Below, piece after piece: positions 3,317 through 62,425 of a stretch of DNA of 64,000 bases. The translations under genes and the position numbers were made by a program. Position 1 is the first letter of the stretch, and every line of letters starts with the position of its first letter. Origin of the DNA: Candidatus Omnitrophica bacterium UBA6233 (lineage in GTDB: Bacteria > Omnitrophota > Gorgyraeia > Gygaellales > Profunditerraquicolaceae); contig DJWJ01000016.1 of NCBI GenBank assembly GCA_002440965.1, positions 7,409 through 71,408 on the forward strand. The letters are read 5' to 3'. The notes under the pieces were generated by a model. The model was not told where the DNA came from, searched no databases, and worked only from the letters and a program-made list of their open reading frames with translations.

Positions 3317-4009
3317 TTGAGAACAGAGGAAAGAATAAGGGCAAGGAAGTTTCGGACGCAAGGTTTATCTCTTAGGGAGATTTGTGGGAGAATTAAGTGT
3401 TCTAAAAGTTCAGTAAGTGGATGGGTGCGCGATATCCCCTTAACTACCGAGCAAATTGCAAGGCTTAAGTTAAAGCAGGATAAGGGCCGCGCCAATGCTG
3501 CTAATCATCCTAATAGCCCTAAGCAGGTTTGGGTGAGAATACGTAGTGATATCATAACTTCTGCTGTCAAAGAAATTCCTGCTATCCCCTCAGGTTTGGC
3601 GTTAAAAATAGTTGGAACAGCATTATATTGGGGTGAAGGATATAAAGCGGTAGATAATATGGTTAGCTTTAGCAATTCTGATCCTCAAATGATTGCCTTG
3701 ATGATGAAATTTTTTAAAGAAATATGCAAAGTGCCAAAAGTAAAATTTCGTGGAGCAACACATATCCACCCGCACTTAGATAAAATAAAATCCGAAAAAT
3801 TTTGGGTAAAGGTTAGCGGAATACCGCTAACACAATTTCATAAGACTCAATTCGGGGTTAGTAGAGTCAGTAAACAAAAAAGAGATTCATTGCCTTTAGG
3901 CACTTTTAGTATAATAATATGTGATGCTCGCCTTCAGTCAAAGATTAAAGGTTGGATTAAAGGACTGGAGGCCTGGATTAATATTCGGGCGGTTAGTTCA
4001 GTTGGTTAG
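3317..4009 (+). CDS. hypothetical protein with N-terminal HTH-like region (TTG start); 3' end overlaps tRNA-Val
   Basis: 230-aa ORF with N-terminal 'GLSLREICGRIKCSKSSVSGWVRD' HTH-like stretch. No recognisable family. Last 23 nt overlap the tRNA. Confidence 0.3.
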   Translation: MRTEERIRARKFRTQGLSLREICGRIKCSKSSVSGWVRDIPLTTEQIARLKLKQDKGRANAANHPNSPKQVWVRIRSDIITSAVKEIPAIPSGLALKIVGTALYWGEGYKAVDNMVSFSNSDPQMIALMMKFFKEICKVPKVKFRGATHIHPHLDKIKSEKFWVKVSGIPLTQFHKTQFGVSRVSKQKRDSLPLGTFSIIICDARLQSKIKGWIKGLEAWINIRAVSSVG

Positions 4010-4063
4010 AACGCGTGATTTACATTCACGAAGTCAGGGGTTCAAGTCCTCTACCGCCCACCA
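3987..4063 (+). tRNA. tRNA-Val (anticodon TAC)
   Basis: Acceptor stem GGGCGGT/ACCGCCC, D-arm 'TAGTTCAGTTGGTTAGAAC', anticodon stem CGTGA/TCACG with loop 'TTTACAT', T-arm 'GGGGTTCAAGTCCTC', encoded CCA. Confidence 0.85.
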
Positions 4064-4131: not shown

Positions 4132-4207
4132 GGGGTCGTAGCTTAGCCTGGCTTAAAGCGCCTCCCTGTCACGGAGGAGATCGCGAGTCCGAATCTCGTC
4201 GGCCCCG
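4132..4207 (+). tRNA. tRNA-Asp (anticodon GTC)
   Basis: Acceptor GGGGTCG/CGGCCCC, anticodon stem CCTCC/GGAGG with loop 'CTGTCAC', T-arm 'CGAGTCCGAATCTCG'. No encoded CCA. Confidence 0.85.
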
Positions 4208-7496: not shown

Positions 7497-8348
7497 ATGG
7501 GTAAAAACATAGACGACATAGAATTCGTAATTTTTGATACTGAGACTACCGGATTGGATCCTTCTTTGGGAGACCGGATAGTCGAGATTGCCGCGCTAAG
7601 GTTTAAAGGCAGGGAAAGGCTAGCGGAGTTTCAGACGTTAGTGAATCCGGATAGGCCTGTATCTAGTGCAGCCTTCGCGGTCAATAAAATCAGCGCGGAT
7701 ATGCTTAAAGACGCTCCCAACCCAACTGAAGTAATCCCGAAGTTTCTGGATTTTATTCAAGGCAGCTGCCTTTGTTCCTATAACGCGGGATTTGACCTGG
7801 AATTCCTGAATAATGAGTTTAAAATATTAGGCATTCCCGCATTAAAAGATATTGTGGTAGTGGATGCGCTTAAGATGGCCAAGCGTCTTATGCCGGGGTT
7901 AGAGCGTTACGCGCTTTGGTTTGTGGCGGATGCCTTAGGAATAAAAATTCAGCAAAAACACCGCGCATTTTCCGATGTTGAACTTACCTTAGGTGCTTTC
8001 TATAAATTAAAAGATATGCTTGCGGCTAAAAGCATAATTGATTTTAATAAATTTGTCGGTTTATTTAGCATTGATCCGGTTCTGCTAGAGACTATCAATA
8101 ACCAAAAGATTGCTCAGATCCAGGAGGCGTTGAATTTAAAGGTCCAAGTAAAAATCGAATATATTTCTGCTTCCAGCGCTCAGGTTACTGAGCGCGAGGT
8201 TGTGCCGAAAGAAATTAAGCAGGAGAATGGCCGTAATTATCTGGTTGGATATTGTTGTTTAAAACGGCAAGAGCGGTCATTTCGGGTTGATAATATACTG
8301 CATATTGAGCTGGTGTATGAAAACAGTAAAGATCAAATTACCCGTTAA
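7497..8348 (+). CDS. DnaQ-like 3'-5' exonuclease (DEDDh) fused to a C-terminal WYL domain
   Basis: Exo I 'FVIFDTETTGLD', Exo III 'HRAFSDV'. The C-terminus 'REVVPKEIKQENGRNYLVGYCCLKRQERSFRVDNI' matches the WYL-domain pattern. Confidence 0.6.
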   Translation: MGKNIDDIEFVIFDTETTGLDPSLGDRIVEIAALRFKGRERLAEFQTLVNPDRPVSSAAFAVNKISADMLKDAPNPTEVIPKFLDFIQGSCLCSYNAGFDLEFLNNEFKILGIPALKDIVVVDALKMAKRLMPGLERYALWFVADALGIKIQQKHRAFSDVELTLGAFYKLKDMLAAKSIIDFNKFVGLFSIDPVLLETINNQKIAQIQEALNLKVQVKIEYISASSAQVTEREVVPKEIKQENGRNYLVGYCCLKRQERSFRVDNILHIELVYENSKDQITR

Positions 8349-9378
8349 ATTAAAAAAAACAGTTTTGGCCTTGGGCCCGCAAACCAAAAATACAATTTGT
8401 TTTGCCAAAGGCAGCAATGCGTATGTCAGCCCAGTGCATGCGGAGCTAAGTTCTCCTAAAGATTTGTTAGCTTTTGAAAAAGACGCAAAATGCTTTCTTA
8501 AGAAGCATCCTAAGATTATAACCTGTGATTTACATCCTGAATATCAGTCAACCAAATTTGCTCTTTCTCTCTACGGTAGCTACAAGCCTGTATTAATTCA
8601 GCATCACCATGCGCATATTGCCGCTTGCATGGCAGAGAATGGGTTGAAAGATCAAAAAGTAATCGGCGTTGCTTTTGACGGCACAGGCTTAGGATCTGAC
8701 AATAACATTTGGGGCGCAGAATTTTTAGTCTGTAACTATAAAACATTTGTTAGGCAGGCGCACTTAAAAGAGATCCCGCTTGTTGGCGGAGAGAGAGCGG
8801 TTTTAGAACCCTGGAGAGTATTAGCTGCCTGGTTTGATTTTAATAAGAGTCAGGCCTTAAGAAAAATATATCAAGCCGGAATCAATTCCCCCCTAGCTAG
8901 TAGTATGGGCAGGTTATTCGACGCAGTTGCCAGCCTTATTTTAAATAAGAAAAAGGCGAGTTTCGAGGCAGAGTTGCCAATTGCCTTAGAAAAGCTCGCT
9001 GAAAAAGGCAAACTTCTAAGCTCAGGTTATAGATTTAACCTGAAAAAATACAAAGATAACTATATTATTGATCCGTCCGGAATATTTAAGCAGATCCCTA
9101 AGGATTTAAAATCAGGAATCTTGCGTAAAGATGTTGCCCTGAATTTCCATCGTAGTGTAGCCAGCATGATCGCGCAAACCTGTTTAGTTCTAAGAAGAAG
9201 AAATAAAACCAAGAAAGTAGTTTTATCCGGAGGAGTTTTTCAAAACAGGCTTTTACTGAATTTTAGTTCGGATTTATTAAATGAAGAAGGTTTTGAAGTT
9301 TTTACGCATCAAAAATTATCCTGCAATGATTCGTGTGTTTCTTTGGGGGAGGCAATTATAGCAGGTTTAAGGAGTTAA
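8317..9378 (+). CDS. hypF: HypF-like carbamoyltransferase, C-terminal Kae1/YgjD-like domain only (truncated HypF)
   Basis: 'LIQHHHAHIAACMAENG' and 'GVAFDGTGLGSD' match the HypF C-terminal domain. No acylphosphatase, Zn-finger or YrdC domains are encoded upstream. Start placed at the Met after the previous stop. Confidence 0.55.
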   Translation: MKTVKIKLPVKLKKTVLALGPQTKNTICFAKGSNAYVSPVHAELSSPKDLLAFEKDAKCFLKKHPKIITCDLHPEYQSTKFALSLYGSYKPVLIQHHHAHIAACMAENGLKDQKVIGVAFDGTGLGSDNNIWGAEFLVCNYKTFVRQAHLKEIPLVGGERAVLEPWRVLAAWFDFNKSQALRKIYQAGINSPLASSMGRLFDAVASLILNKKKASFEAELPIALEKLAEKGKLLSSGYRFNLKKYKDNYIIDPSGIFKQIPKDLKSGILRKDVALNFHRSVASMIAQTCLVLRRRNKTKKVVLSGGVFQNRLLLNFSSDLLNEEGFEVFTHQKLSCNDSCVSLGEAIIAGLRS

Positions 9379-9381
9379 GCC

Positions 9382-9591
9382 ATGTGCTTGGGTATACCTA
9401 TGAAGATCAGGAAGATTAACGGAGATTTTGCCGAGGTGGAATCCGGAAGGCTTTTACGCAATGCCAGCATTCAGATGTTACCCGGTTTAAAAGTGGGTGA
9501 TTATGTGCTGGTGCACGCCGGTTTTGCTATCCAAAAGGTTAATCCGGAAAGGGCTAGGGAAACTTTAAAGATTGCCAATGAGATACGTTGA
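9382..9591 (+). CDS. hypC: hydrogenase maturation factor HypC
   Basis: N-terminal 'MCLGIP' with essential Cys2, and 'VGDYVLVHAGFAI'. Confidence 0.8.
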   Translation: MCLGIPMKIRKINGDFAEVESGRLLRNASIQMLPGLKVGDYVLVHAGFAIQKVNPERARETLKIANEIR

Positions 9592-10666
9592 TGAATTCCG
9601 AAATCCTAAGTTAGTCGAAAAAATCGCCGCAAGAATATCCAGCATCAACCCCGGGGATAAAATTGATATTATGGAGGTTTGCGGAACCCATACACAGAAT
9701 TTTTACCGTTTTGGGTTAAGAGAGCTTTTGCCTAAAAATGTCAGGTTAATTTCCGGACCCGGTTGTCCGGTGTGTGTAAGCCCGCAAAAGTATATTGATT
9801 CCGCTATTGAATTGGCCAAAGATAAGGATGTAATTATCGCTACCTTTGGCGATATGTTGCGCATGCCCGGAACCAATTCTTCGCTGGAAGAAGAAAAAAC
9901 CGAGTTTGGAAATGTCCGTATAGTCTATTCTCCTTTGGACACATTGTTTATAGCCAAAAAGAATCCCCACAAGAAAATAGTGTTTTTGGCGGTTGGTTTC
10001 GAGACCACCGCACCCACCATCGCCCTAACAATTTTATCCGCAAAAAAAGAGAAACTAAAGAATATTTTCTTTCTCTCGTCGCTTAGACTAATCCCGCCGG
10101 CTATGCGGTATTTGTTATCCGATAAGAGGCTCAAAATCGACGCATTTTTATGCCCGGGTCATGTTTCGGCAGTTATCGGAACGCAAGATTATGAATTTAT
10201 CCCGAAGAAATATGGAAAAGCCTGTTGTATCGCTGGTTTTGAGCCAGTGGATATTTTGGAAGGAATATGTAGAATTCTAGAGCAAATTATCCTAAATAAG
10301 CCATATGTGGCTAATCAATATACGCGCATAGTTACTAAAACCGGGAATACCCGGGCAAAAAGAGTCACTAACCGTGTGTTTGGAATAAGAGATTCTGAAT
10401 GGCGCGGCCTTGGTTTTATACCGGATAGCGGTCTAGAATTAAAAAGAGAATTTTCTGTTTTTGACGCAAAACGCGTTTTTTCTATTAGCGACAAGAAAAT
10501 CAAGGAAAAAATAACAAGTAGCTGCAGATGCGCTGATATTCTAAAAGGTGTTATTTCTCCGGAAGATTGTCCTTTATTTGTAAGAGCGTGCAATCCGGAT
10601 AATCCTATTGGCCCATGTATGGTTTCCAGCGAAGGAACGTGTAATGCATATTATAGGTATCGTTAG
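9572..10666 (+). CDS. hypD: hydrogenase maturation factor HypD
   Basis: 'CGTHTQNF', 'GPGCPVCV', 'FETTAP' and a C-terminal Cys-rich region; 364 aa. Confidence 0.85.
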   Translation: MPMRYVDEFRNPKLVEKIAARISSINPGDKIDIMEVCGTHTQNFYRFGLRELLPKNVRLISGPGCPVCVSPQKYIDSAIELAKDKDVIIATFGDMLRMPGTNSSLEEEKTEFGNVRIVYSPLDTLFIAKKNPHKKIVFLAVGFETTAPTIALTILSAKKEKLKNIFFLSSLRLIPPAMRYLLSDKRLKIDAFLCPGHVSAVIGTQDYEFIPKKYGKACCIAGFEPVDILEGICRILEQIILNKPYVANQYTRIVTKTGNTRAKRVTNRVFGIRDSEWRGLGFIPDSGLELKREFSVFDAKRVFSISDKKIKEKITSSCRCADILKGVISPEDCPLFVRACNPDNPIGPCMVSSEGTCNAYYRYR

Positions 10667-13124
10667 AAAGTTAAAAGTCAAAAGTCCCTGCCTGCCCGGC
10701 AGGCAGGAAAAGTCAAGACTACAGAGGAAAAATGAAAAATTCAAGTTTTGGGCTGTAGCTTTAGGTTTTTCTCTCTTGTTTTTGCCTTTGCTGATTGGCT
10801 GTGCGCAAAAGATTGAATCGAAGCCGCAAGACTATGCCAAGTTATCCGAGGATTACTACAGTAAGGCCATTAAAGAGTATGAAAGGTCAATCTTCGCCGA
10901 TAAGAATACGGATAAGCCGTATTTTGAATTGGGCAAACTCTACTACGGGCACGGAGATTTTGAGAATGCCGTGAGGGCGTTTCAAAAATCAGCCCTTCCC
11001 GCAGCCGGAAAATTTATTGGTATAGCATATTACCGCCTAGGAGATTACACAAGCGCTCTGGAGATGTTTAACCGCGGGAAATCAACCGATGGGGAGTACG
11101 GATATTATTACGGGTTGACTTGCGAAAAGCTGAATTTATTTGATCAGGCCTTAAATATTTATAAAGGAATTAATGACGGAGAATTCCAGGCTAAAGCAAA
11201 GGCCCGGATTGAGGCAATCGAAAGAAATATTAGTTCAGCGCATATTCGGGACCTAGACCCGGAAATAAGCAGGATTATAGTTTGTTCTCCACAGCAAAAT
11301 AGCTATCCTCAGGCAGCCGCGCTTATTCTCTGGGCCGACGAAGAAATAGAGGTGACCAAAGATAACACCGGGGTATCGCGCCTTCATTATTTGATTAAGA
11401 TTCTTAATGAACGAGGAAAGGAAAATCTTGCGGAAGCCCAAATAGAGTATGATTCCACATTTGAAAAAGTGGAGTTGGAGTACGCGCGCACCATTAAACC
11501 TGACGGCAAGCTGGTTAATGTGGGATCTCGCCACATCCGCGACGTATCGAAATATCTGAACTTCCCGCTTTATAGCAACAATCGGGTCTTTATAATTTCA
11601 TTTCCCGAAGTAGCTATAGGTTCTTGTCTAGAGTATAAACTTAAAATAAAGCGCAGCGAGCTTATCAACAAGAAAGACTTTGTTTTAAATTATCCCCTGC
11701 AGTCTGAAGAGCCGATTATTTCGGCGGATTTTTCGTTTATTCTACCAAAAGAGAAAAAACTTAAAATTAAGGTCATCAACGAGGAGTATAATGATTTCAA
11801 AGCGGTTCTTATTCCTTTTGTTGAAGAACGGGGGGATAGCCTGATTTATCGCTGGAAATTCAAAGATATCCCGCAGATAATCCCGGAGCCCAATATGCCG
11901 CCCGATGTCGAAATCAATCCCATGATTTTATTATCTACTTTCCAGAGTTGGGATGAGGTCTACGATTGGTGGTGGAATTTAGCTAAAAACAAAATCCAGG
12001 CAGATCCAGCCATTAAGCAAAAGGTGAAGGCGTTAATCAGAAAAAAGCATTCTGACGGAGAAAAGGCGCGTTCAATTTATAATTTTTGCGCTCAAAACAT
12101 TCGTTATGTCGCGGTAGAATACGGGCAGGCCGGTTATGAGCCGCATTCGGCAAGCGAAATATTTAAGAATAAATACGGCGATTGCAAGGATCAGGCAATA
12201 CTTTTAGTTACCATGTTTAAAGAAGCTGGCCTTGACGCTTATCCGGTGCTTATCAGCACTGATAAGTCCATTGATCTTAATCCCGACCTGCCGGCAACAT
12301 TGTTTAATCATTGTATAGTGGCTTTGGAAATAAATGGGAAGACTATATTTCTTGATCCTACCGCTCAAACCTGTTCCTTCGCAGACCTGCCTCAGCAAGA
12401 TCAGTTACGCAAGGTTTTGGTATTTAGCCCGGACGGATACAAAATATTGGATACACCGTTATTCCCTCCGGAGCATAACTTAGCCCGTCAGGATCTAAGC
12501 ATAACAGTGAACGAAAACGAAGGGGTAACCGCCGATAAAAAGAATCTTACCCGCGGTTTGTATGATCAAATTCAGCGTTACTGGCTCCTCTATACTCAGC
12601 CTGAGCTCATCCAGGATGTTTTAAATAATGCGGCACAGGAAGTTTCAATCGGGGCTAAAGTGGATAAATATAAAATTGATAATTTAAGCGATTTAAATAA
12701 GCCGGTTGTGTTGTCGTACAGTTTTTCCGGGAATGAGTTTTTCATTGTTTCGGGAGCCTTGAGGATTTTGCCGCAATTGGCCTCGGTTAACACATCTTTA
12801 GTTTCCAAGCTTAAGCGGAAATATCCGATTGACCTTGCCCTCTTGGATACTAAGGAAGAATTCTTCGAGATAAATCTTCCCGGCGGTTTTATCATTAAGA
12901 ATATGCCGGAGAATCTAAACGAGGATAGTCCATGGTTAAGGGTTGAAGTAGAATATGGCTATAAAGATAACAAGGTTTTCTCCCGGCAGCAAACCGAAAC
13001 CAAGAAAAGGATAATTTCACAGAACGAATATCCATCTTTCAAAGTTTTTTTAGAGAAAATAGCGAGAGAACTCAAGCAAAGGATAATTTTAGAAAAGGTA
13101 GATGGCGAATATGAGAAAAAATGA
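10644..13124 (+). CDS. TPR-repeat / DUF3857 / transglutaminase-like lipoprotein
   Basis: Lipobox 'LLIGCAQK'; TPR-like 'YFELGKLYYGHGDFENAVRAFQKS'; transglutaminase core 'KYGDCKDQAILLVTMFKEAGLDAYPVL'. Start assigned to the ATG at 10644. The N-terminal basic region is encoded by the repeat element. Confidence 0.55.
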   Translation: MHIIGIVRKLKVKSPCLPGRQEKSRLQRKNEKFKFWAVALGFSLLFLPLLIGCAQKIESKPQDYAKLSEDYYSKAIKEYERSIFADKNTDKPYFELGKLYYGHGDFENAVRAFQKSALPAAGKFIGIAYYRLGDYTSALEMFNRGKSTDGEYGYYYGLTCEKLNLFDQALNIYKGINDGEFQAKAKARIEAIERNISSAHIRDLDPEISRIIVCSPQQNSYPQAAALILWADEEIEVTKDNTGVSRLHYLIKILNERGKENLAEAQIEYDSTFEKVELEYARTIKPDGKLVNVGSRHIRDVSKYLNFPLYSNNRVFIISFPEVAIGSCLEYKLKIKRSELINKKDFVLNYPLQSEEPIISADFSFILPKEKKLKIKVINEEYNDFKAVLIPFVEERGDSLIYRWKFKDIPQIIPEPNMPPDVEINPMILLSTFQSWDEVYDWWWNLAKNKIQADPAIKQKVKALIRKKHSDGEKARSIYNFCAQNIRYVAVEYGQAGYEPHSASEIFKNKYGDCKDQAILLVTMFKEAGLDAYPVLISTDKSIDLNPDLPATLFNHCIVALEINGKTIFLDPTAQTCSFADLPQQDQLRKVLVFSPDGYKILDTPLFPPEHNLARQDLSITVNENEGVTADKKNLTRGLYDQIQRYWLLYTQPELIQDVLNNAAQEVSIGAKVDKYKIDNLSDLNKPVVLSYSFSGNEFFIVSGALRILPQLASVNTSLVSKLKRKYPIDLALLDTKEEFFEINLPGGFIIKNMPENLNEDSPWLRVEVEYGYKDNKVFSRQQTETKKRIISQNEYPSFKVFLEKIARELKQRIILEKVDGEYEKK
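10667..10719. repeat. short palindromic repeat element, copy 1: AAAAGTCAAAAGTC flanks around CCTGCCTGCC-CGGCAGGCAGG
   Basis: A near-identical element occurs at 28079-28138. Both copies lie in-frame inside ORFs. Confidence 0.7.
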
Positions 13125-15075
13125 GTATTTAGGAAAAGAGAAACGGCAATACGTGCGTTTAGACACGGTTTTTCCCGTGCAATTCCGCCTTGTAAGCGTC
13201 GACGGCAAAATTAACTTATCCGACTGGTTACAGGGGTTTACCAGCGATTTAAGCAAAGGCGGGATATGTTTATGCGTAAACAACTTCGAACCGGGCCTTC
13301 TGCAATTAATCAAAGAGCATAAGGTAAAACTCTCCTTGGCCATAGATATACCATTCTTAAGAAAGCCGGTAGATGTTTTAGCTGTTCCGGTTTGGACGAG
13401 AGAGAAGGCAGGTGCCGTCAACAAATGTTACATCGGGCTTTCTTATGAAAAAATAAATTCTGCCGCCAATAGTAGGTTAATGATTTATGCTCGGGGGAAG
13501 AAGTTATTCGTTCCGGCGGTTTTAGGGGCCATCATTCTTTTGGGGGCGCTTTTAGCATTAAACGGCCTTATAAACATGGAGCTTAAAAAGAATAACAGGG
13601 CCTTAGTTAAGGCTTTGACCGCGGTAATTCAGGAATCCCAAGCCGTCCGGCAGAAAATAAGCGATGTAAACAAGGAAAAAGCGCTTTTGGAATCAAATAT
13701 CCAGGCGCTAGAATCGCGTATAAAAGCAGCAGATTACGAAAGGCTAAAGCTGAAAAGTAAGACGCAAACCGAATTGTCCGAGCTCACGGAGCAGTCCGGG
13801 AGAAAAATAGATGACCTAAGCAATCTTATTAAACAGTTAACAATGGAAAAAGAGGAGCTTAGGGGTAAGTTGGCTGCTACTCGAATCAAAGAGAGCGTTA
13901 TCGTTAAGGAGGCGGCCCGAATAGAAGAGAAGAAGGCGGTTATAGAGAAGGCAAATTTTGATGCGATGTATCAATGGATTAAGGTGCATCAAAATCCCCG
14001 CACCGGCCTGGTGGTGAGCTTCGAGGGGGACAACGATATAAGCGGATGGGCTTTTACTTATGACCAGTCCTTGGTTATACAAGCTTTTACTAATTTTAAA
14101 GATTTTGAACGCGCAAGAAAAATGCTGGATTTTTTCAATAACCGGGCTGAAAAGAAGGACGGCTTATTCTTAAACGCCTATTATGCTAACGACGGTTTGC
14201 CCTCCGAAGTTATAGTCCATTGCGGGCCGAATATTTGGCTGGGGATTGCGGCAGTTCAATATACTTATAAGACCAATGATAAAAAATATCTTAGTATGGC
14301 CGAGAGTATTGCCGATGGTATAATTGATTTACAAAAACAAGATGCCGAAGGAGGATTGCGCGGAGGGCCCAGCGTGACGTGGTATGCCACAGAGCATAAT
14401 CTTGACGCATACGCATTCTTCAATATGTTATACGTACTTACGAGTAAACAGAAATATTTGGAGGCCAGAGATAAGGTATTGGATTGGCTGGTTAAGAATA
14501 CCTATAATAAGACAGATATTCCTATTAAGCGCGGCAAAGGAGATTCTACTATTGCCACCGATACTTACGCTTGGTCAATTGCCGCCATCGGCCCGGATAA
14601 ATTGGAAAGTTTAGGGATGGATCCAGATAGAATTATGGATTTCGCGGAGAAGACCTGCAGCGTAAACGTTTTTTATACAAAACCGGAAGGAGATAAGGTT
14701 AAAATCAAAGGTTTTGATTTTGCTCCCGAAAGACATGTTTCCCGCGGAGGAGTAGTTTCTTCGGAGTGGACTGCCCAGATGGTCATTTCTTTTAAGATTA
14801 TGGCGGATTATTATCTTAAGAAAAATATTCCCGGCAAGGAAAACAGTTATCGGTTGAAAGCGGATGAATATCTTCTTTCTTTAAGCAATATGATTATTTC
14901 CAGTCCATCTGCTTCGGGCCAGGGGGCAAACTGTCTGCCTTACGCCAGCCAAGATTTTGTAGATACGGGGCATGGTTGGTTTACGCCAAAAGGCAAAGAT
15001 ACCGGGTCAGTATCCGGGACTACCTATACAATCTTTGCTTATTATAATTACAATCCCTTGGAATTCAAAGATTAA
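13102..15075 (+). CDS. PilZ-domain protein with TM segment, coiled coil and a C-terminal (alpha/alpha)6-barrel-like domain
   Basis: N-terminal PilZ motifs 'RQYVRLDTVFPVQF' and 'DLSKGGICL'; hydrophobic segment 'VPAVLGAIILLGALLAL'; long heptad-like region; C-terminal glycosidase-like fold is inferred only. Confidence 0.5.
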   Translation: MANMRKNEYLGKEKRQYVRLDTVFPVQFRLVSVDGKINLSDWLQGFTSDLSKGGICLCVNNFEPGLLQLIKEHKVKLSLAIDIPFLRKPVDVLAVPVWTREKAGAVNKCYIGLSYEKINSAANSRLMIYARGKKLFVPAVLGAIILLGALLALNGLINMELKKNNRALVKALTAVIQESQAVRQKISDVNKEKALLESNIQALESRIKAADYERLKLKSKTQTELSELTEQSGRKIDDLSNLIKQLTMEKEELRGKLAATRIKESVIVKEAARIEEKKAVIEKANFDAMYQWIKVHQNPRTGLVVSFEGDNDISGWAFTYDQSLVIQAFTNFKDFERARKMLDFFNNRAEKKDGLFLNAYYANDGLPSEVIVHCGPNIWLGIAAVQYTYKTNDKKYLSMAESIADGIIDLQKQDAEGGLRGGPSVTWYATEHNLDAYAFFNMLYVLTSKQKYLEARDKVLDWLVKNTYNKTDIPIKRGKGDSTIATDTYAWSIAAIGPDKLESLGMDPDRIMDFAEKTCSVNVFYTKPEGDKVKIKGFDFAPERHVSRGGVVSSEWTAQMVISFKIMADYYLKKNIPGKENSYRLKADEYLLSLSNMIISSPSASGQGANCLPYASQDFVDTGHGWFTPKGKDTGSVSGTTYTIFAYYNYNPLEFKD

Positions 15076-19976: not shown

Positions 19977-20966
19977 ATGAGAACGGTCGGGTTAACCTAC
20001 GATTTAAAGACAGATTATCAATTTAAAGAAGGCGATCCTCTTGATGCTAACGCTGAATTCGATCATCCATCGACTATTGATATTATTGCTTGCGCAATTG
20101 AAGCAAACGGTTTTAAAGTAGAGAGGATAGGTAACGCCGGGAATCTTCTCGAAAAATTATCTTCTTTAAGGGTGGACATTGTTTTTAATATCTCCGAAGG
20201 ATTAACCGGGAGAAACCGTGAATCCCAAGTACCCATATTACTTGAGATGGCCGGAATTCCTTTTGTTGGCTCAGACGCTCTTACTCTTGGGCTTACTTTG
20301 GATAAGGTTATGGCCAAAAAGATTTTTATCGCTGAGAAAATACCCACTCCAAAATTTATTGAAACAAGCTCAGTGGAAGAATTAGCAAATACCAATCATT
20401 ACAAGTTTCCTTTAATCGTAAAGCCGCGCTTTGAGGGTTCTTCCAAAGGTTTAAGCGAAAGTTCCCGGGTTGAAAATAGAGATGACTTGCTTAAGCAGGT
20501 TGGATATATTGTTAATGCTTATAAACAACCAGTGCTGGTTGAAGAGTTTATATCCGGTCAGGAATTTACTGTGGCTCTTGTAGGAAACGATCCTGCGGAA
20601 GTTCAGCCAATCGTTCAAATTAAAATCGACGGAAAACTAAAATTAAACGACAGGTTTTACACCTTTGCCCGTATTACTTCCGATAGATTGGAATATATTT
20701 GTCCGGCAAAAATCCCTCAAGAATTAAAGAAGAAGATCGATGATCTGGCCTTAAGGACTTATAAAGCGGTAGATTGCCGTGATTTCGGACGGGTTGATTT
20801 TCGGGTTGACAATGAAGGCAAGCCCTATGTCTTAGAGATAAACCCTTTGCCTTCCCTGTCTACCGAAGACGTATTTATGCTTTTAGCCAAAAACACAGGT
20901 ATTACTTATGAGCAGATGATTGGCAAAATCTTAAATAGCGCAATTAAAAGGCATAATCTCGACTAA
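19977..20966 (+). CDS. D-Ala-D-Ala-ligase-like ATP-grasp enzyme, paralog 1
   Basis: Ddl-family architecture: N-domain 'VDIVFNISEGLTGRNRESQVPILLEMAGIPFVGSD', central 'PLIVKPRFEGSSKG', C-terminal 'FGRVDFRVD...YVLEINPLP'. Confidence 0.65.
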   Translation: MRTVGLTYDLKTDYQFKEGDPLDANAEFDHPSTIDIIACAIEANGFKVERIGNAGNLLEKLSSLRVDIVFNISEGLTGRNRESQVPILLEMAGIPFVGSDALTLGLTLDKVMAKKIFIAEKIPTPKFIETSSVEELANTNHYKFPLIVKPRFEGSSKGLSESSRVENRDDLLKQVGYIVNAYKQPVLVEEFISGQEFTVALVGNDPAEVQPIVQIKIDGKLKLNDRFYTFARITSDRLEYICPAKIPQELKKKIDDLALRTYKAVDCRDFGRVDFRVDNEGKPYVLEINPLPSLSTEDVFMLLAKNTGITYEQMIGKILNSAIKRHNLD

Positions 20967-21968
20967 ATGAAGATTGCCCTAACGTATAATTTAAAAAAGA
21001 AGGATACGACAAAACCCGCGGATTATTTTTCGGAGTGTGACTCCGAAGAAACCATTAACGCCATCACCGGGGCTATCCGCAGAAAAGGTCATAATGTCGA
21101 GGCAATCGACGTAGAATATCCCAAGTTATTCTCTTATTTTAGGAAAAATTCGGTAGATATGGTTTTTAATATTGCCGAAGGCAAGTCAGGTAAGTTTCGC
21201 GAGTCGGAAGTTCCGGCGATATTAGATTACCTAAAAATTCCTTACACAGGTTCAGATACATTCTCCTTAGCCTTAGCTTTGAATAAGGCCCTTACCAAGA
21301 AGATTTTAAAAGCCGAAAATATCCCGACTCCGAATTTCCAGGTTTTTATTAAAGGAACGGAAGAATTGAACCCGGATTTAAGATTTCCTTTGATCGTAAA
21401 GCCAAATTGCGAAGGTTCGGCTAAAGGGATTAGCAAGCTCAATGTGGTTAATAACACGGAGGATTTATTCAAGCGGGTTAAAGATATTCTTAGCGTATAT
21501 AAACAGGAAGCCCTGGTGGAAGAATTCATCGAAGGCAAAGAGCTTACCGTAGGGATTTTGGAAAACGGCAAGACCCGCGTCCTGCCGATCTTAGAAATTG
21601 ATTTCTCCGACTGTAAGAATAGCGGAGAATATTTTTATTCCTGGAAGATGAAGGAATACCAGGGAAATAAAGAGTTGGGGTTAGTGCCGACTTTTCACTG
21701 CCCGGCGCGCCTGGATTCGGAGACTGAAAAAGCGGTTAAGGATGTCGCACTCAGGACGCATCGCGCAGTCGGCTGCCTGGATATTTCACGTACCGATATA
21801 CGTTTGGACAAATTCAATGTGCCTTATGTTCTGGAGATTAATCCTCTCCCGGGTTTAGATCCTAAGGAATCAAATTTTCCAATTATGGCGTATGCCGCGG
21901 GAATGAAATACGAAGATCTTATTGAGGCAATAATTCTAAGCGCCTCTGAAAGGAAAGGCTTAAATTGA
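20967..21968 (+). CDS. D-Ala-D-Ala-ligase-like ATP-grasp enzyme, paralog 2
   Basis: Collinear with paralog 1: 'VDMVFNIAEGKSGKFRESEVPAILDYLKIPYTGSD', 'PLIVKPNCEGSAKG', 'YVLEINPLPG'. Its start codon directly abuts the previous stop. Confidence 0.65.
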   Translation: MKIALTYNLKKKDTTKPADYFSECDSEETINAITGAIRRKGHNVEAIDVEYPKLFSYFRKNSVDMVFNIAEGKSGKFRESEVPAILDYLKIPYTGSDTFSLALALNKALTKKILKAENIPTPNFQVFIKGTEELNPDLRFPLIVKPNCEGSAKGISKLNVVNNTEDLFKRVKDILSVYKQEALVEEFIEGKELTVGILENGKTRVLPILEIDFSDCKNSGEYFYSWKMKEYQGNKELGLVPTFHCPARLDSETEKAVKDVALRTHRAVGCLDISRTDIRLDKFNVPYVLEINPLPGLDPKESNFPIMAYAAGMKYEDLIEAIILSASERKGLN

Positions 21969-23152
21969 GCAGCGTTCAGGCAATTGAAAATCAAAAATTG
22001 CAGCAGGAAAACGCTAATGTTGTACGCACAAGCAGAAAGCCCCGGGACTACCAGCAGATAGGTATTTATAAGGACATTAACCCTTTGGACTGGGAAGATT
22101 GGCATTGGCAGATAAAGAACAGGATTTGCACCAAAGATGTTCTGGCGCAGATAATCAGTTTGACTCCCGACGAGGAAAAGGGGATTGATAAGGCTAGGGG
22201 CCGTTTATCCATGGCTATAACTCCTTATTGGGGTTCTCTTCTTGATCAGGAAGACGCCAATTGTCCGATCAGGCGTCAATCTGTTCCGGTAATCCAGGAA
22301 TCCATGGTTACTCCGCATGAAATGACTGATCCTTGCGCCGAAGACAGAGATTCTCCGGCTCCGCATTTGGTGCACCGCTATCCAGATAGGGTTCTACTAT
22401 TGGCGACTGACCATTGCGCTATGTATTGCCGGCATTGCACGCGCCGGCGTCTGGTTGGCGATCATGAGGTCAAAGATGCAAATTCTGCGGATAGGTTTGA
22501 TGCAGCTATCGAATACATAAAAGCCAACCGTAAAATAAGGGATGTGCTGATATCCGGAGGCGACCCGTTAATTCTGGAAGACGAAGAATTGGAAAAGCTG
22601 CTGCAAAAGATTCGTTCTATATCGCACGTGGAATTTTTAAGGATCGGCACGCGTATCCCGGTGACTCTTCCTCAGCGCATTACGGAAAACCTGGTGAATA
22701 TGCTTAAAAAATATTCGCCGATCTGGATGAGTATACATTTTAATCACCCCAAGGAGATTACCAAACGCTGCAAGATTGCCTGCGATATGCTTTCGGAGGC
22801 AGGCGTTCCCTTAGGGAGTCAAACGGTCTTGCTTAAGGGTGTTAATGATCGGCCCTTCATAATGAAAAAGCTGGTTCATGAATTGTTGCAGATAAGGGTA
22901 AGGCCGTATTATATTTATCAGTGCGATCCGGTGCGCGGCACGCAGCATTTCCGGACTCCCGTAGCTACCGGGATAAATATCATGGAGAAGTTGCGCGGAC
23001 ATACTTCCGGATACGCTGTCCCTACCTATGTTATTGATGGTCCTGGCGGAGGCGGAAAAATTCCCGTGGGGCCGAATTATATTCTTTCACAGGCTAAAGG
23101 AAAATACGTCCTGCGTAATTATAAGGGTAAGATTTACACCTACCTAGAATAA
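21965..23152 (+). CDS. kamA: lysine 2,3-aminomutase (KamA-family radical SAM/PLP enzyme)
   Basis: 'WEDWHWQIKNRI', 'PYWGSLL', 'CPIRRQSVP', radical SAM 'CAMYCRHCTRRR', and 'YYIYQCDPVRGTQHFRTP'. Confidence 0.8.
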   Translation: MSSVQAIENQKLQQENANVVRTSRKPRDYQQIGIYKDINPLDWEDWHWQIKNRICTKDVLAQIISLTPDEEKGIDKARGRLSMAITPYWGSLLDQEDANCPIRRQSVPVIQESMVTPHEMTDPCAEDRDSPAPHLVHRYPDRVLLLATDHCAMYCRHCTRRRLVGDHEVKDANSADRFDAAIEYIKANRKIRDVLISGGDPLILEDEELEKLLQKIRSISHVEFLRIGTRIPVTLPQRITENLVNMLKKYSPIWMSIHFNHPKEITKRCKIACDMLSEAGVPLGSQTVLLKGVNDRPFIMKKLVHELLQIRVRPYYIYQCDPVRGTQHFRTPVATGINIMEKLRGHTSGYAVPTYVIDGPGGGGKIPVGPNYILSQAKGKYVLRNYKGKIYTYLE

Positions 23153-33615: not shown

Positions 33616-33872
33616 AAGTAAGTTATTTTCATCGTCCGCAAGCAGTTCATTTGCTTACGACCCCCAGCAAAATCTCCTTAGTTAGTTTATAAGTTTTTAA
33701 ACGCCTAGAATTTCTCTTGAGTGATAATCGCGAGGTTCGGGCAATAGTTATAATGAGCAAAGTCTATGCTTGGAACTATCTGAAAATAAGATAGTTGTAA
33801 CTATTCTCTTGTGTTATATTATATATGCATAAAGTGATAAAGCAGATTGAAATGTATTCTAAGGGAATATAA

Positions 33873-35534
33873 ATGCGGAAAATCTTGATTATTAGTAAAA
33901 GCGCTTTGCTGTTTAGTTTTATTTTATCAGCATCTTTTTTGTTAAGGATGACACCTTCTAAAGGGTGCGTTCTTGAGTTTGTTTCTGACAGCGCCTTCAA
34001 TTATCGCATGACCGCATCGGTTATTCAAAAGGGGTCCGTACCTATAATTGATCGCTTGAGTATTTATCCTGAAGGCAAAAACATAAGAAATTTTCTTCCC
34101 ATCGGGCTTTACCATGCAGGAGCAGTTTTTCACAGGTTTTTAAATATCTTTAGGCAAATCCCGCTTAATGAATCTTTGCTGATTTTTGCCGCTTTTTTTA
34201 GTTCCTTGATTTGCGTCCCTGTTTATTTCTTATCGTTAGAGATCTATAGAAATGAAAAAATAATAGCCTTCCTTTGTGCGTTTTTATCCGCGATTATCCC
34301 CGCTTATCTGCATAGGACGTTCTGTTATATGTATAGATATGAAGTGCTGGCTGCGCCGTTACTTTTTATGAGTTTGCTATTTTTTATCATGGCCTTTAGA
34401 GAGAATAACGGTAAGCTGCGGTTTACTTGTTATTTTGGGACGTCCCTTTTTTGGCTGATGTTAGCTTCTTGGGTTTGGAGGCTGTATGTTTTATTCTTAA
34501 TTGCCTATCTTATCAGTATCGCTTATCTTTGTCTGAAACGCCGAAATTTGCTCGGAAATGAATGGATAAAAATTATTATTTCCGGGGTATGCGTTCTGCT
34601 GTTATTTTTCGCATTGGGCTTGGCTCAAATCCCGAGATATTCCGGATTGCCGTATCTCCGGACTTTTTTTGAGGTTTTCATACAACGCCTGTATCCTCCG
34701 TATAATTTTAGTCAATTCTCCAAAGTTATTTATTACGTAAACGAATTGTCAGGAGTTAGTATCTTAGGACTATTGGGGACTAAGTTTCTGTCTTTTTCAG
34801 GAGTATTCGCTATTTTTTACTTATACGCCTGCTTTAGAAAACAGAAGTTTAATCCGCAAAAATTTATTTTGCAGTTTTTCATAATCCTTTTCCTCGTGCT
34901 CACCCTGCTTTTTTCGAGATTCAAGATAATCTTGGGGCCCTTGATCGCTTTGTCTTTGGGAGAAAGTCTGTTTTTTGTTTTTCATAATTACAGGGGAATA
35001 ATGAAGAAGATTTTATTGGGTCTTTTGGTCATAATTTTTGTTAAAACAGGGTGTGATGCCTGGAGATTGGCCAGTACGAGATTTAAATATGCCGGTATGG
35101 ATGCCGAATTAAAGCAAGTTATCTCGGCGGTGAATAGGTTGACCTCGAAAAACGCCGTGATACTTTGCGATTGGGGGCAGGGTTATTCCATTCAGACGTA
35201 TTGTAATCGTCCGACAATAACCGACGGCCTCTTGGAGAGCCCGGAGATAATCAAAAGAATTATAAGGGTGGCCAAGGTTTTCAACTCTTATGATGAACAG
35301 GCGCTACGGTTGTTTTGTAAGGAGTATGGTGTAACTCATATCTTGGTTGCCAAAAGGTTGGATTACGCATTTGCATATTCACAATATTCAGGCCGCGGTT
35401 TTACCATGGGCAAGGGCGCTAACGATAAGGACGTGCCCTTAATATATAAATTATTTTATCGTTCGCCCGATTTAAAAAGAATCGATTTCTTGTATGAAAA
35501 TAAAGGATTTATTTTATTCGCGCTGAAAGATTGA
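33873..35534 (+). CDS. polytopic membrane glycosyltransferase with STT3/PglB/AglB-like 'WWDYG' region (putative oligosaccharyltransferase)
   Basis: About 11 predicted TM helices. 'CDWGQGYSIQTYCNRPTITDG' aligns to PglB '[21 protein letters not shown]' (G-Y-x3-x-Y-x4-T-x2-DG pattern). Confidence 0.4.
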   Translation: MRKILIISKSALLFSFILSASFLLRMTPSKGCVLEFVSDSAFNYRMTASVIQKGSVPIIDRLSIYPEGKNIRNFLPIGLYHAGAVFHRFLNIFRQIPLNESLLIFAAFFSSLICVPVYFLSLEIYRNEKIIAFLCAFLSAIIPAYLHRTFCYMYRYEVLAAPLLFMSLLFFIMAFRENNGKLRFTCYFGTSLFWLMLASWVWRLYVLFLIAYLISIAYLCLKRRNLLGNEWIKIIISGVCVLLLFFALGLAQIPRYSGLPYLRTFFEVFIQRLYPPYNFSQFSKVIYYVNELSGVSILGLLGTKFLSFSGVFAIFYLYACFRKQKFNPQKFILQFFIILFLVLTLLFSRFKIILGPLIALSLGESLFFVFHNYRGIMKKILLGLLVIIFVKTGCDAWRLASTRFKYAGMDAELKQVISAVNRLTSKNAVILCDWGQGYSIQTYCNRPTITDGLLESPEIIKRIIRVAKVFNSYDEQALRLFCKEYGVTHILVAKRLDYAFAYSQYSGRGFTMGKGANDKDVPLIYKLFYRSPDLKRIDFLYENKGFILFALKD

Positions 35535-61342: not shown

Positions 61343-62425
61343 ATGAAGAGAATCTATAAGGTCTTACTATGGCTAATCGCCATCTTTTTCATAGTTTTTG
61401 TCCTTGTCAATATAGCTCTCTCCTTATTTGCCAAGCAAATAGTTGTTAAGCAAATCGAGCAAAATATAAAACTACATACTACTCTTGATAAAATAAGCGT
61501 TGATCTGCCTCTTTCAATAAAATTAACTAAGTTGAGCATAGGAGACTTGTTTAGGGCGGATGAAATTTCGGTTTCACCGAATATTTTAGGATTTTTTGCC
61601 GGCAAAATCGCGCTTAACAGAGTAATATTAGTCAATCCGGTAGTAAATCTTGAGCGCTCAGGAGACGGAAACTTAAATCTACCTAAATTAGAACAAAAAG
61701 GAACGCAGAAGGCTCCGCCGGTCTATCTTACCGGCCTAAGCATTAGAAACGGGAAAATAGTTTTTACCGATAAAAAGGTTGAAGCTTCAGGTTATAAGGT
61801 TATCTTGGACAGGTTGAGCGCGCATGTATCTAAAGTTATGCTTCCGCCAACTTCTTTAAAGGCGAATTTTAAGCTTTCAACGGATATATTGGACTCGGAT
61901 AGCCAAAAGCTGGGAAGTATCGGGTTAAGCGGCTGGGTTGACTTTGGGCCCAAGGATATGGATGCCGTCTTGAATATAAAAGATTTGGATTTGATCTATT
62001 TTTCTCCTTATTACGGAAATTTTATTTCCCAGAAAAAACTTCTTTCAGCTAAACTTAACGTAAATGCTACGTTTAAAGCCAAAGATAACAATTTAAATAT
62101 CTTAACTGATTTTAAACTTTCAAATTTAACCTATGCCCAAGAAGAGCCTGTTGAGGGAGGGCTTCCGGAATTAGATTTAACCAGAAATGCTTTGGATTTT
62201 TTTACTGATTCCAAGGGTAACTTGGGACTTGAGTTTGAGGTCAATACTCAGTTGAATCATCCCGCTCTCAGCCCCGAGCAGCTTAAGAAAATTATGTTAA
62301 AGGCAGCGGCCAAGAATCTTTCTAATCAATCGCCGGATGAATTGATTCAAAAGGTTAGCGATAATATCGAACAGTTTAAAGCGATTGGTAAAACTCTTAA
62401 AAACATATTTGGAGGGAAAGATTGA
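61343..62425 (+). CDS. hypothetical membrane-anchored protein (AsmA/DUF748-like)
   Basis: N-terminal TM 'LLWLIAIFFIVFVLVNIAL'; long beta-rich region. Weak family assignment. Confidence 0.3.
   Translation: MKRIYKVLLWLIAIFFIVFVLVNIALSLFAKQIVVKQIEQNIKLHTTLDKISVDLPLSIKLTKLSIGDLFRADEISVSPNILGFFAGKIALNRVILVNPVVNLERSGDGNLNLPKLEQKGTQKAPPVYLTGLSIRNGKIVFTDKKVEASGYKVILDRLSAHVSKVMLPPTSLKANFKLSTDILDSDSQKLGSIGLSGWVDFGPKDMDAVLNIKDLDLIYFSPYYGNFISQKKLLSAKLNVNATFKAKDNNLNILTDFKLSNLTYAQEEPVEGGLPELDLTRNALDFFTDSKGNLGLEFEVNTQLNHPALSPEQLKKIMLKAAAKNLSNQSPDELIQKVSDNIEQFKAIGKTLKNIFGGKD

Follow-up and report, generated by a model that had tools for sequence, protein, structure and literature searches.

What kind of enzyme is the short STT3-like membrane protein encoded by Candidatus Omnitrophica bacterium UBA6233, and does it glycosylate proteins? 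The question is raised by one gene in a 64,000-nucleotide stretch of contig DJWJ01000016.1 (the window, whose positions are used throughout). The original prediction, made from the letters of the sequence, had read the product as a short STT3/PglB-like putative oligosaccharyltransferase (OST), which, if genuine, would indicate N-linked or related protein glycosylation. Profile searches and a predicted structure identify it as an STT3-superfamily GT-C enzyme. On balance it is probably an active, periplasm-facing protein glycosyltransferase that depends on a lipid-linked sugar and recognizes its acceptor in a non-canonical way. Sequence comparison places it as a minimal, divergent form in a bacterial clade between the AglB/STT3 OSTs and the DPY19 C-mannosyltransferases. 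The gene lies exactly where it had first been placed:

33873..35534, + strand: STT3-superfamily GT-C membrane glycosyltransferase gene, ATG start, 553 amino acids (aa), from the open reading frame (ORF), Pfam, the AlphaFold2 model, Foldseek and the ratio of nonsynonymous to synonymous substitution rates (dN/dS)

The family assignment is carried by profile and fold comparisons. In Pfam, residues 38-359 matched the STT3 N-terminal family PF02516 at 45.8 bits (cut-off 24.5; E 7.9e-12), and no other match appeared at E<=10, whether to PMT, PMT_2, ArnT, Dpy19 (PF10034) or PF21436, the STT3/PglB/AglB core that the classical relatives P0069 and P0091 do match. An NCBIfam scan of the protein gave no match, and neither did phmmer with the single window sequence against the PDB, for which a family profile was required. 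The AlphaFold2 model built on the family alignment (predicted local distance difference test, pLDDT, 79; predicted template-modeling score, pTM, 0.83) was compared with solved structures by Foldseek. Eukaryotic STT3 came first (E 5e-15; query TM-score 0.75-0.78), followed by Archaeoglobus fulgidus AglB (E 1.6e-10; 0.57-0.64), Caenorhabditis elegans DPY19 (E 3.8e-10; 0.65-0.68) and PglB (E 1e-7; 0.61-0.63), with ALG12, AftD, Pmt4 and ArnT at E 1e-5 to 2e-4 and TM-scores of 0.44-0.49 (individually, AftD 5e-5, Pmt4 2.1e-4 and ArnT 2.4e-4). A better match to GT39/GT83, which the original prediction had named as an outcome that would refute it, was not found (E 5e-15 for STT3 vs ~2e-4 for Pmt4/ArnT), and a PMT/ArnT identity was rejected, since no such Pfam match exists and the fold is far closer to STT3. 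The STT3 half of the first designation is thus sound. The PglB half lacks support: of all solved OSTs, PglB lies farthest from the window protein (Foldseek E 1e-7; hidden Markov model (HMM) E 6e-4), and PF21436 is unmatched. Family membership in itself is not new, the protein being already annotated generically as an STT3-domain protein.

The defining motifs of OSTs (GT66) are two DXD motifs, TIXE/SVSE, WWDYG, DGGK/DNxTxNx(T/S) and DK/MI (PMC8342417). The catalytic set of PglB comprises D56, R147, D154, D156, E319 and R375, and in STT3 external loop 2 (EL2) reads Rx6DNE and EL6 reads Rx6P (PMC6801728). Residue equivalences, taken from the family profile against PDB chains and from hhalign against three reference alignments, were mutually consistent, and five of the six PglB catalytic positions are retained (D39, R148, E157, E291 and R349). 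The motifs concerned are the following:

33987-33989, + strand: D39 in SDSAFNYR, the Asp of the first DXD, aligning to FDPYFNYR of STT3
34050-34052, + strand: invariant D60 in P-x-x-D-x-L-S-x-Y-P-x-G, D60...P66-x-G68 corresponding to WFD...YPLG
34314..34343, + strand: EL2 motif R148-x6-R155-Y-E157 (Rx6DNE in STT3, Rx6LRE in DPY19)
34743-34745, + strand: E291 in YVNE of EL5, the Glu of TIXE/SVSE, aligned by hhalign to archaeal TVAEH
34917..34940, + strand: R349-F-K351-I-I-L-G-P356 with R349 and P356 invariant, the Rx6P motif that opens the penultimate transmembrane helix
35169..35228, + strand: degenerate WWDYG block DWGQGYSIQTYCNRPTITDG, with W434, G437, Y438, Q441, T442 and D451 conserved
35235..35258, + strand: dome loop E455-S-P-E-I-I-K-R462, its clade-specific invariant Glu and its conserved Arg common with DPY19-like proteins (C. 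elegans DPY19, CeDPY19, E579 and R586)

The acidic loop residues that the original prediction had asked for were found in EL1 (D39) and EL5 (E291). D39 corresponds to PglB D56, STT3A D49, AfAglB D47 and Glu71 of DPY19, R148 is the conserved EL2 Arg, and E157 occupies the third position of the second DXD. The position of the metal-ligand Asp (PglB D154, STT3A D167, AfAglB D161) is taken by R155, on which four independent alignments agree. Around E291, the Thr/Ser-Ile/Val part of TIXE/SVSE is just loosely retained. R349 equals PglB R375, STT3A R405 and DPY19 R471, and K351, which equals DPY19 K473, is invariant in Omnitrophota-type proteins and common in longer bacterial relatives.

The peptide singled out at first, CDWGQGYSIQTYCNRPTITDG (residues 432-452, nt 35166-35228), had been matched residue for residue to the PglB/AglB catalytic block. 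Homology of the block is borne out by HMMER against PDB STT3 chains and by three profile-profile alignments, but the register was one off: as first given it yields 1/21 identities to the PglB string, and shifted by one (DWGQGYSIQTYCNRPTITDGL) 7/21, the unique maximum over the protein. In the corrected register, ILCDWGQGYSIQTYCNRPTITDG aligns with (S/A)WWDYGY(Q/W)I......R.T..D of OSTs, and WWDYG becomes D433-W434-G435-Q436-G437 (DWGQG), with two of five residues kept, the second Trp and the Gly. The family consensus here is (Y/D/H)-W-(A/S/G)-(D/E/Q)-G; the Asp of WWD is absent throughout and its first Trp is Y, H, F or D. Of DGGK/DNxTxNx(T/S) just D451-G452 remains, followed by L-L-E-S-P-E. No clear DK/MI motif was found: the profile alignment to AfAglB-S1 has a 9-residue gap at its DK segment, and most family members have a Lys near the site (N-R-K-x-A-Y-A) without the acidic or Met/Ile signature residues. 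In OSTs, WWD and DK/MI together form the pocket for the +2 Ser/Thr (PMC8342417). With two of five WWDYG residues, an invariant Arg for the EL2 Asp, no clear DK/MI motif and DPY19-like proteins equally close, the claim of N-linked glycosylation capacity was not upheld. The E455-R462 loop falls within or beside His575-Arg584 of CeDPY19, the loop by which DPY19 grips its acceptor Trp and places the donor (PMC10154233).

The motif also varies between neighbors. One metagenome contig carries two tandem family members (L013:42-518, cut by the contig end, and L013:539-2215) that are 46% identical over the C-terminal domain and read CYWADGY vs CDWSDGY, a difference that suggests specialization of paralogs.

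Hydropathy and the AlphaFold2 helices, which supply the topology prediction originally recommended, agree on a polytopic protein of 11 predicted transmembrane helices, not the OST-typical 13, with the N-terminus inside and the C-terminal domain outside. The short inner loops are rich in Lys and Arg, and all conserved charged residues fall in predicted external loops. Between helix 7 (~230-255) and the helix at ~305-322, no hydrophobic segment occurs in the five Omnitrophota-type proteins examined; two extra ones are found there in the 600-700-aa bacterial, archaeal AglB-like and classical relatives. A hairpin of helices 8 and 9 is therefore deleted in Omnitrophota-type proteins with the topology preserved, which leaves 11 helices rather than 13, brings EL5 directly after helix 7 and, beside the short C-terminal domain, makes the protein short. 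The outward-facing regions are:

33957..34163, + strand: external loop 1 (residues 29-97), carrying SDSAFNYRMT with D39, and D60, aligned by HMM to STT3 HEFDPYFNYR and WFDDRAWYPLGR
34623..34790, + strand: long external loop equivalent to EL5 (residues 251-306), directly after helix 7 (hydropathy, AlphaFold2)
35085..35531, + strand: C-terminal periplasmic domain (residues 405-553), a central-core ('CC'/'luminal dome') unit only

The C-terminal domain had been put at ~110 aa; its shortness holds, and the figures are ~149 aa after the last transmembrane helix and 121 aa from the WWDYG-like motif to the end of the protein. Foldseek matches it to the C-terminal domains of AfAglB-S1/S2 (3vgp and 3vu0), and in a search with the family profile 3vgp (E 2.7e-3) was the solved structure closest in sequence to this domain. 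Cys151 (nt 34323-34325), in EL2, is invariant, and Cys444 and Cys482 are conserved in the periplasmic domain; these are possible disulfide partners, reminiscent of the loop-to-dome disulfide of DPY19.

The protein does not stand alone. Nineteen near-full-length relatives of ~553 aa share 37-92% identity with it, the named ones being 'STT3 domain-containing protein' entries of Candidatus Omnitrophota. A scan of 185,579 species-representative genomes returned four loci, all Omnitrophota, and a search of metagenome contigs another set of 4 loci. When 1.84 billion cluster representatives were searched exhaustively with the profile, 1958 matched at E<=1e-3 and 81 of them at E<=1e-30; two further word-indexed homolog searches, with the longer-relative alignment and the archaeal RHE alignment, added almost nothing new. 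The 166 relatives collected were aligned to the family profile and sorted by motif state into four groups. The first holds 66 full-length representatives of 470-711 aa, with Arg at the Asp position and x-W-x-x-G-Y for WWDYGY. D60, R155, E/D157, E291, R349, W434 and D451 are present in all 66, D39 in 62 (one exception has Gly and three are unaligned there), R148 in 65, E455 in 64 and R462 in 56; members named outside Omnitrophota come from Auribacterota and Eisenbacteria. The second group consists of classical proteins with D/E-x-E and WWDYGY. The third comprises TACK/Asgard AglB-like proteins with FYRHEQ, in which TVAEH, WWDYGYW and the double-sequon-like DGxTxNSS are intact (Korarchaeia, Thermofilum, Baldrarchaeia; P0069, P0078, P0085, P0098, P0107, P0131). 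The fourth is bacterial, 750-880 aa long, without the Trp block, with Pfam Dpy19 matches of 61-104 bits and C-terminal TPR repeats. It includes P0102, P0109, P0113, P0127 and about 25 others from the cluster-representative search; these proteins keep equivalents of CeDPY19 E71, R211, LRE and R471, and P0113 derives from Candidatus Erginobacter occultus (Auribacterota).

By hhalign, the Omnitrophota family scores 428 against the classical AglB-like set, 402 against the bacterial DPY19-like set and 338 against the small archaeal RHE set, each at 100% probability, and its C-terminal domain aligns gap-free to the dome of the bacterial DPY19-like proteins. Profile comparison thus places the clade about equidistant from AglB/STT3 and the DPY19-type C-mannosyltransferases. 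In a crude neighbor-joining tree, the first group sits in a star-like center between the other groups; since that center is unresolved and the alignment to the family's own profile biases the tree, no branching order is claimed. Residues were carried over to CeDPY19 through the bacterial DPY19-like P0113, with its TPR tail removed and the numbering verified on E71, R211 and R471/K473/L474:

D39 = CeDPY19 E71, and R148 = R211
R155-Y-E157 = CeDPY19 L-R219-E220
R349-F-K351-I352 = CeDPY19 R471-L-K473-L474
E455 = CeDPY19 E579, and R462 = R586

CeDPY19 is independent of divalent metals, with Glu71 as acid/base and R211 and R471 for the phosphate; because its E71D variant retains most activity, D39 can count as the catalytic carboxylate of a DPY19-type EL1 (PMC10154233). 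In its Rx6LRE motif, R211 and E220 are essential, and R471-x-K473 serves phosphate binding and a cation-pi contact with Trp+3. A precomputed Pfam Dpy19 match exists for 4 of the 19 close relatives and none for the window protein. DPY19 cages the acceptor Trp with the aromatic residues Y395 and F401 of EL5 and Y578, and the position of Tyr578 is Leu454 here and L, F or Y in the family. Judged by alignment, the OST-type features of the family are the D39/E291 pair, W434, G437-Y438 and D451-G, and the DPY19-type ones are the missing metal-ligand Asp, the Arg beside the EL2 Glu, the R-x-K motif and the dome loop with Glu and Arg.

A contig of a closely related Omnitrophota metagenome-assembled genome (L005) is syntenic with the window over the whole block, and comparison of the gene with its syntenic ortholog there (L005:6692-8347) gives a dN/dS of 0.19; the gene is under purifying selection.

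How such a protein would work can be pictured from these elements. It would be an inner-membrane GT-C enzyme with its active site toward the periplasm, taking a sugar or glycan from a polyprenyl-phosphate-linked donor, as all GT-C enzymes do, and most probably transferring it onto a protein of the periplasm or cell surface, at a stretch that is unfolded. Activity is favored because about a dozen charged residues of the outward loops are conserved at 20-30% identity and because of the dN/dS of 0.19. D39 and E291 may act on the acceptor as in OSTs, where a pair of this type has been proposed to activate the Asn amide; retention of these two carboxylates favors an Asn amide as the acceptor. Chemistry of the OST kind on a peptide seems most likely because D39 and E291 are retained together and the position of E291 is not conserved in bacterial DPY19-like proteins of the 166-relative alignment. 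R349, and possibly R155, could stabilize the departing polyprenyl phosphate. R155 might take the place of the divalent cation, or it might alter the shape of a site where a cation stays bound by D39, E157 and E291. With WWD gone and no clear DK/MI motif, the Ser/Thr pocket is remodeled; recognition of the canonical N-x-S/T is therefore unlikely, and the signal read in the acceptor would be a different one.

Proteins of the 'R-x-E / x-W-x-x-G-Y' type also occur in the Planctomycetes-Verrucomicrobia-Chlamydiae (PVC) group and other candidate phyla. A bolder and unlikely generalization would make the clade an unrecognized bacterial GT-C lineage bridging OSTs and C-mannosyltransferases, with the 11-helix Omnitrophota proteins as its minimal form and with a new kind of protein glycosylation that combines D39/E291 chemistry, R155 in place of the cation and a signal other than N-x-S/T.

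Several points weigh against the proposal of an active, non-canonical protein glycosyltransferase. The function of clade members is read from sequence and predicted structure, and the place of R155 relative to D39 and E291 from alignments. The Arg is found as well in TACK/Asgard AglB-like proteins (FYRHEQ) whose WWDYG and TIXE are intact, so it may suit ordinary OST chemistry and say little about the metal. The idea that R155 proves metal independence was accordingly not adopted, canonical-looking archaeal AglB-like proteins sharing the Arg; as a second ground, D39, E157 and E291 could still bind a cation, seeing that a metal is coordinated in AfAglB by His163, the residue at position three of its second DXD (PMC8342417). 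Gene context does not help either. Across 49 Pfam-scanned ORFs, spread over the window and including nearly all the larger ones, no glycosyltransferase, flippase or polyprenyl-phosphate sugar synthase was found, and none of the pgl-type genes whose absence next to the gene had been remarked on before. Among nine independent loci, one of them from the longer (600-700-aa) relatives, no neighbor family is common to more than two, and only the STT3-like gene itself recurs. With neither linked glycosylation genes nor a conserved neighbor, gene context gives no handle on donor or acceptor, and inference of them from the neighborhood was dropped. Isolation from pgl genes is not evidence against OST function, since aglB of Sulfolobus is likewise isolated from glycosyltransferase genes (PMC4287180).

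Other explanations have to be set beside this one. A canonical single-subunit N-OST of the PglB/AglB kind, moving a glycan from undecaprenyl pyrophosphate (or phosphate) to the Asn of N-x-S/T with a divalent cation, would account for the STT3 membership and fold, for the conserved D39, R148, E157, E291 and R349, and for W434, G437-Y438 and D451-G as what is left of the WWDYG...DGG block. WWDYG and TIXE do persist in archaeal AglB-like proteins whose EL2 has Arg at this position, core-only C-terminal domains occur in the archaeal paralogs AfAglB-S1/S2 (PMC3703281), and isolated OST genes are known, e.g., in Sulfolobus (PMC4287180). It is nevertheless quite unlikely: the WWD residues of the +2 Ser/Thr pocket are not conserved (PMC8342417), no clear DK/MI motif and no PF21436 match are present, Arg stands at the position of the metal-ligand Asp, and PglB is the most distant solved OST. 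A second alternative is a DPY19-like, metal-independent monosaccharide transferase that passes a sugar from a polyprenyl monophosphate to a non-Asn residue (C-Trp or another O- or C-linkage) of an unfolded periplasmic peptide. We give this a low probability, in spite of an hhalign score of 402 next to 428 for AglB-like proteins, a C-terminal domain aligned gap-free as a whole, the Dpy19 matches precomputed for 4/19 close relatives and a Foldseek match to CeDPY19 at E 4e-10 (TM-score 0.65-0.68). The absent metal-ligand Asp with an Arg beside the EL2 Glu, as in LRE (PMC6801728), the similarity of R349-x-K351 to R471-x-K473 and of E455/R462 to E579/R586, and the metal independence of DPY19 (PMC10154233) speak for it as well. 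The window protein itself, however, lacks a Pfam Dpy19 match and is structurally closer to STT3. The TIXE-type Glu E291 is invariant here and not in DPY19-like proteins, DPY19 lacks the STT3-type W434, G437, Y438 and D451, the Arg stands one residue away from its DPY19 counterpart (R-Y-E vs L-R-E), no conserved Tyr occupies the Trp-cage position of Tyr578 (Leu454), and C-mannosylation has been reported from metazoa and alveolates only (PMC6801728).

A further reading is an STT3 scaffold re-used, with decayed peptide-binding elements, for a non-protein acceptor such as lipopolysaccharide/lipid A, a periplasmic or surface polysaccharide or a glycolipid, in parallel to ArnT, Emb and AftD. The degenerate peptide-recognition motifs would fit, the same 'dome' core is found in the arabinosyltransferases Emb and AftD (PMC10154233), which give weaker fold matches here, and no conserved target or partner gene is linked. 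This is very unlikely all the same, as the characterized close relatives (STT3, AglB, PglB, DPY19) all have peptide acceptors, the matches to ArnT, Emb and AftD are much poorer (E 2e-4 or worse; AftD 5e-5), and the EL5 Glu and dome-loop residues are conserved where OSTs and DPY19 bind peptide (PMC8342417, PMC10154233). That the gene is an inactive relic or encodes a non-catalytic membrane protein is hardly credible. In its favor, a canonical catalytic residue and the greater part of WWDYG have disappeared, and no other protein of the L005-shared block has diverged as far. Against it, the dN/dS is 0.19, every relative keeps a full-length ORF, and some twelve charged positions in the loops vary little or not at all across the clade at ~20-30% identity.

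The gene is solitary, with spacers of 257 bp upstream and 440 bp downstream, and is preceded by a putative ribosome-binding signal:

33861..33866, + strand: Shine-Dalgarno-like AAGGGA, 7 nt 5' of the ATG, read directly from the sequence

In the promoter scan, promoter-like matches upstream of the gene were no more frequent than expected by chance, and the terminator scan around it gave nothing above chance. A PKD-domain lipoprotein and an MA-type peptidase form its upstream flank, and a PAS histidine kinase with a response regulator the downstream one. In the block common to L005, the STT3-like protein is 85% identical and its nine neighbors 88.5-100%; its dN/dS sits at the relaxed end of the local range. 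Nearly all genes of the window (1-64000) are on the + strand and the guanine-cytosine (GC) skew is positive throughout, consistent with a position on one leading-strand replichore arm.

Other genes of the window and of related loci merit a record. At 8287-10666, a HypF-like gene consisting of the C-terminal Kae1-like part alone (363 aa) adjoins hypD, and at 10608-15075 an 838-aa protein with TPR, DUF3857 and transglutaminase-core domains is followed by an overlapping 657-aa ORF without a Pfam match. Two tandem D-Ala-D-Ala-ligase-like ATP-grasp genes and then a lysine-2,3-aminomutase-like radical-SAM gene occupy 19977-23152; an aminomutase homolog 47% identical to the latter is found ~6 kb from the STT3-like gene of locus L001 (L001:2602-4583). 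Immediately upstream of that L001 gene, in divergent orientation, lies a DUF3047 and HAMP gene pair (L001:8431-9533), which in L003 (18738-19876) is ~8 kb from the STT3-like gene and was not seen near it in the window. Directly downstream, L001 encodes a DUF748-family protein (L001:12001-13248), a distant homolog of which is located in the window at 61343-62425, 26 kb from the STT3-like gene. The tRNA genes at 3987-4060 and 4132-4207, far from the STT3-like gene, are the only Rfam gathering-level matches in the window.

A literature search returned nothing on Omnitrophota STT3-like proteins or on the R-x-E / x-W-x-x-G-Y clade. In the available literature, the clade and its place between OSTs and DPY19, the 11-helix minimal form and the substitution at the metal-ligand position are undescribed. 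Its members are sequence intermediates between STT3 and DPY19, families so far linked just by fold and a few residues, and together with the bacterial DPY19-like proteins they bear on the origin of C-mannosyltransferases. The catalytic site differs at the metal-holding residue of every solved OST and offers a natural test of cation dependence. If active, the protein, with its 553 aa, 11 transmembrane helices and core-only dome, would be smaller than any other natural STT3-type enzyme and would offer a useful minimal scaffold for structural work and glycoengineering. It points to periplasmic or surface glycosylation in Omnitrophota and related uncultured phyla, an activity concealed at present by the labels 'STT3 domain-containing protein' and 'hypothetical protein'; should the protein prove an ordinary N-OST, the finding would be routine.

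Among known systems, the closest in size are AfAglB-S1 and AfAglB-S2 (591 and 593 aa), called the shortest known STT3/AglB/PglB proteins in 2013 (PMC3703281). Like them (3vgp, 3vu0), the window protein is a single-subunit STT3-family member whose C-terminal domain is the central core only; unlike them, with their WWDYG and variant DK motif, it has DWGQG and is ~40 aa shorter. The paralog AglB-L has D-H-H, the second DXD motif, where R-Y-E stands here (PMC8342417), and the solved OSTs all have 13 transmembrane helices as against the 11 predicted. Campylobacter PglB is likewise a single-subunit bacterial STT3-family enzyme, and equivalents of its D56, R147, D156, E319 and R375 are present, whereas PglB is set apart by D154, WWDYG, the MI motif, 13 helices, a pgl cluster beside the gene and a longer C-terminal domain (~280 aa). 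The PMT/TMTC proteins (GT39/GT105) have 11 transmembrane helices and lack two of the middle ones of STT3/DPY19 (PMC6801728), a reduction of the same kind as that seen here; they differ in giving no sequence-family match and a weak fold match (E 2e-4, TM-score ~0.45) and in having other luminal domains.

The likeness to DPY19 (GT98; CeDPY19, PDB 7zlg) extends to the missing EL2 metal-ligand Asp, the Arg next to a conserved Glu, R-x-K on the Arg-bearing helix, and a dome of like length and order with a conserved Glu and Arg in its loop. In contrast to the window protein, DPY19 has a Glu in EL1, L-R-E, His for D451, 13 transmembrane helices and neither the Trp/Gly-Tyr block nor an invariant EL5 Glu, and its bacterial forms add TPR repeats. 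Eukaryotic STT3 and the TACK/Asgard AglB proteins have WWDYG, the full TIXE/SVSE, the DNxTxNxS/T double sequon, 13 helices and a longer C-terminal domain, none of which the window protein possesses, and a DK motif, of which it shows no clear counterpart; a subset of the TACK/Asgard AglB-like proteins does share the Arg at the first position of the second DXD (FYRHEQ). With eukaryotic STT3 and TACK/Asgard AglB it nonetheless has in common D-x-x-FNYR of EL1, D...YPxG, R-x6-..-E, Rx6P and the block ...W-x-x-GY-x-I...R-x-T-x-x-D, and eukaryotic STT3 is its best overall structural match (TM-score 0.75-0.78).

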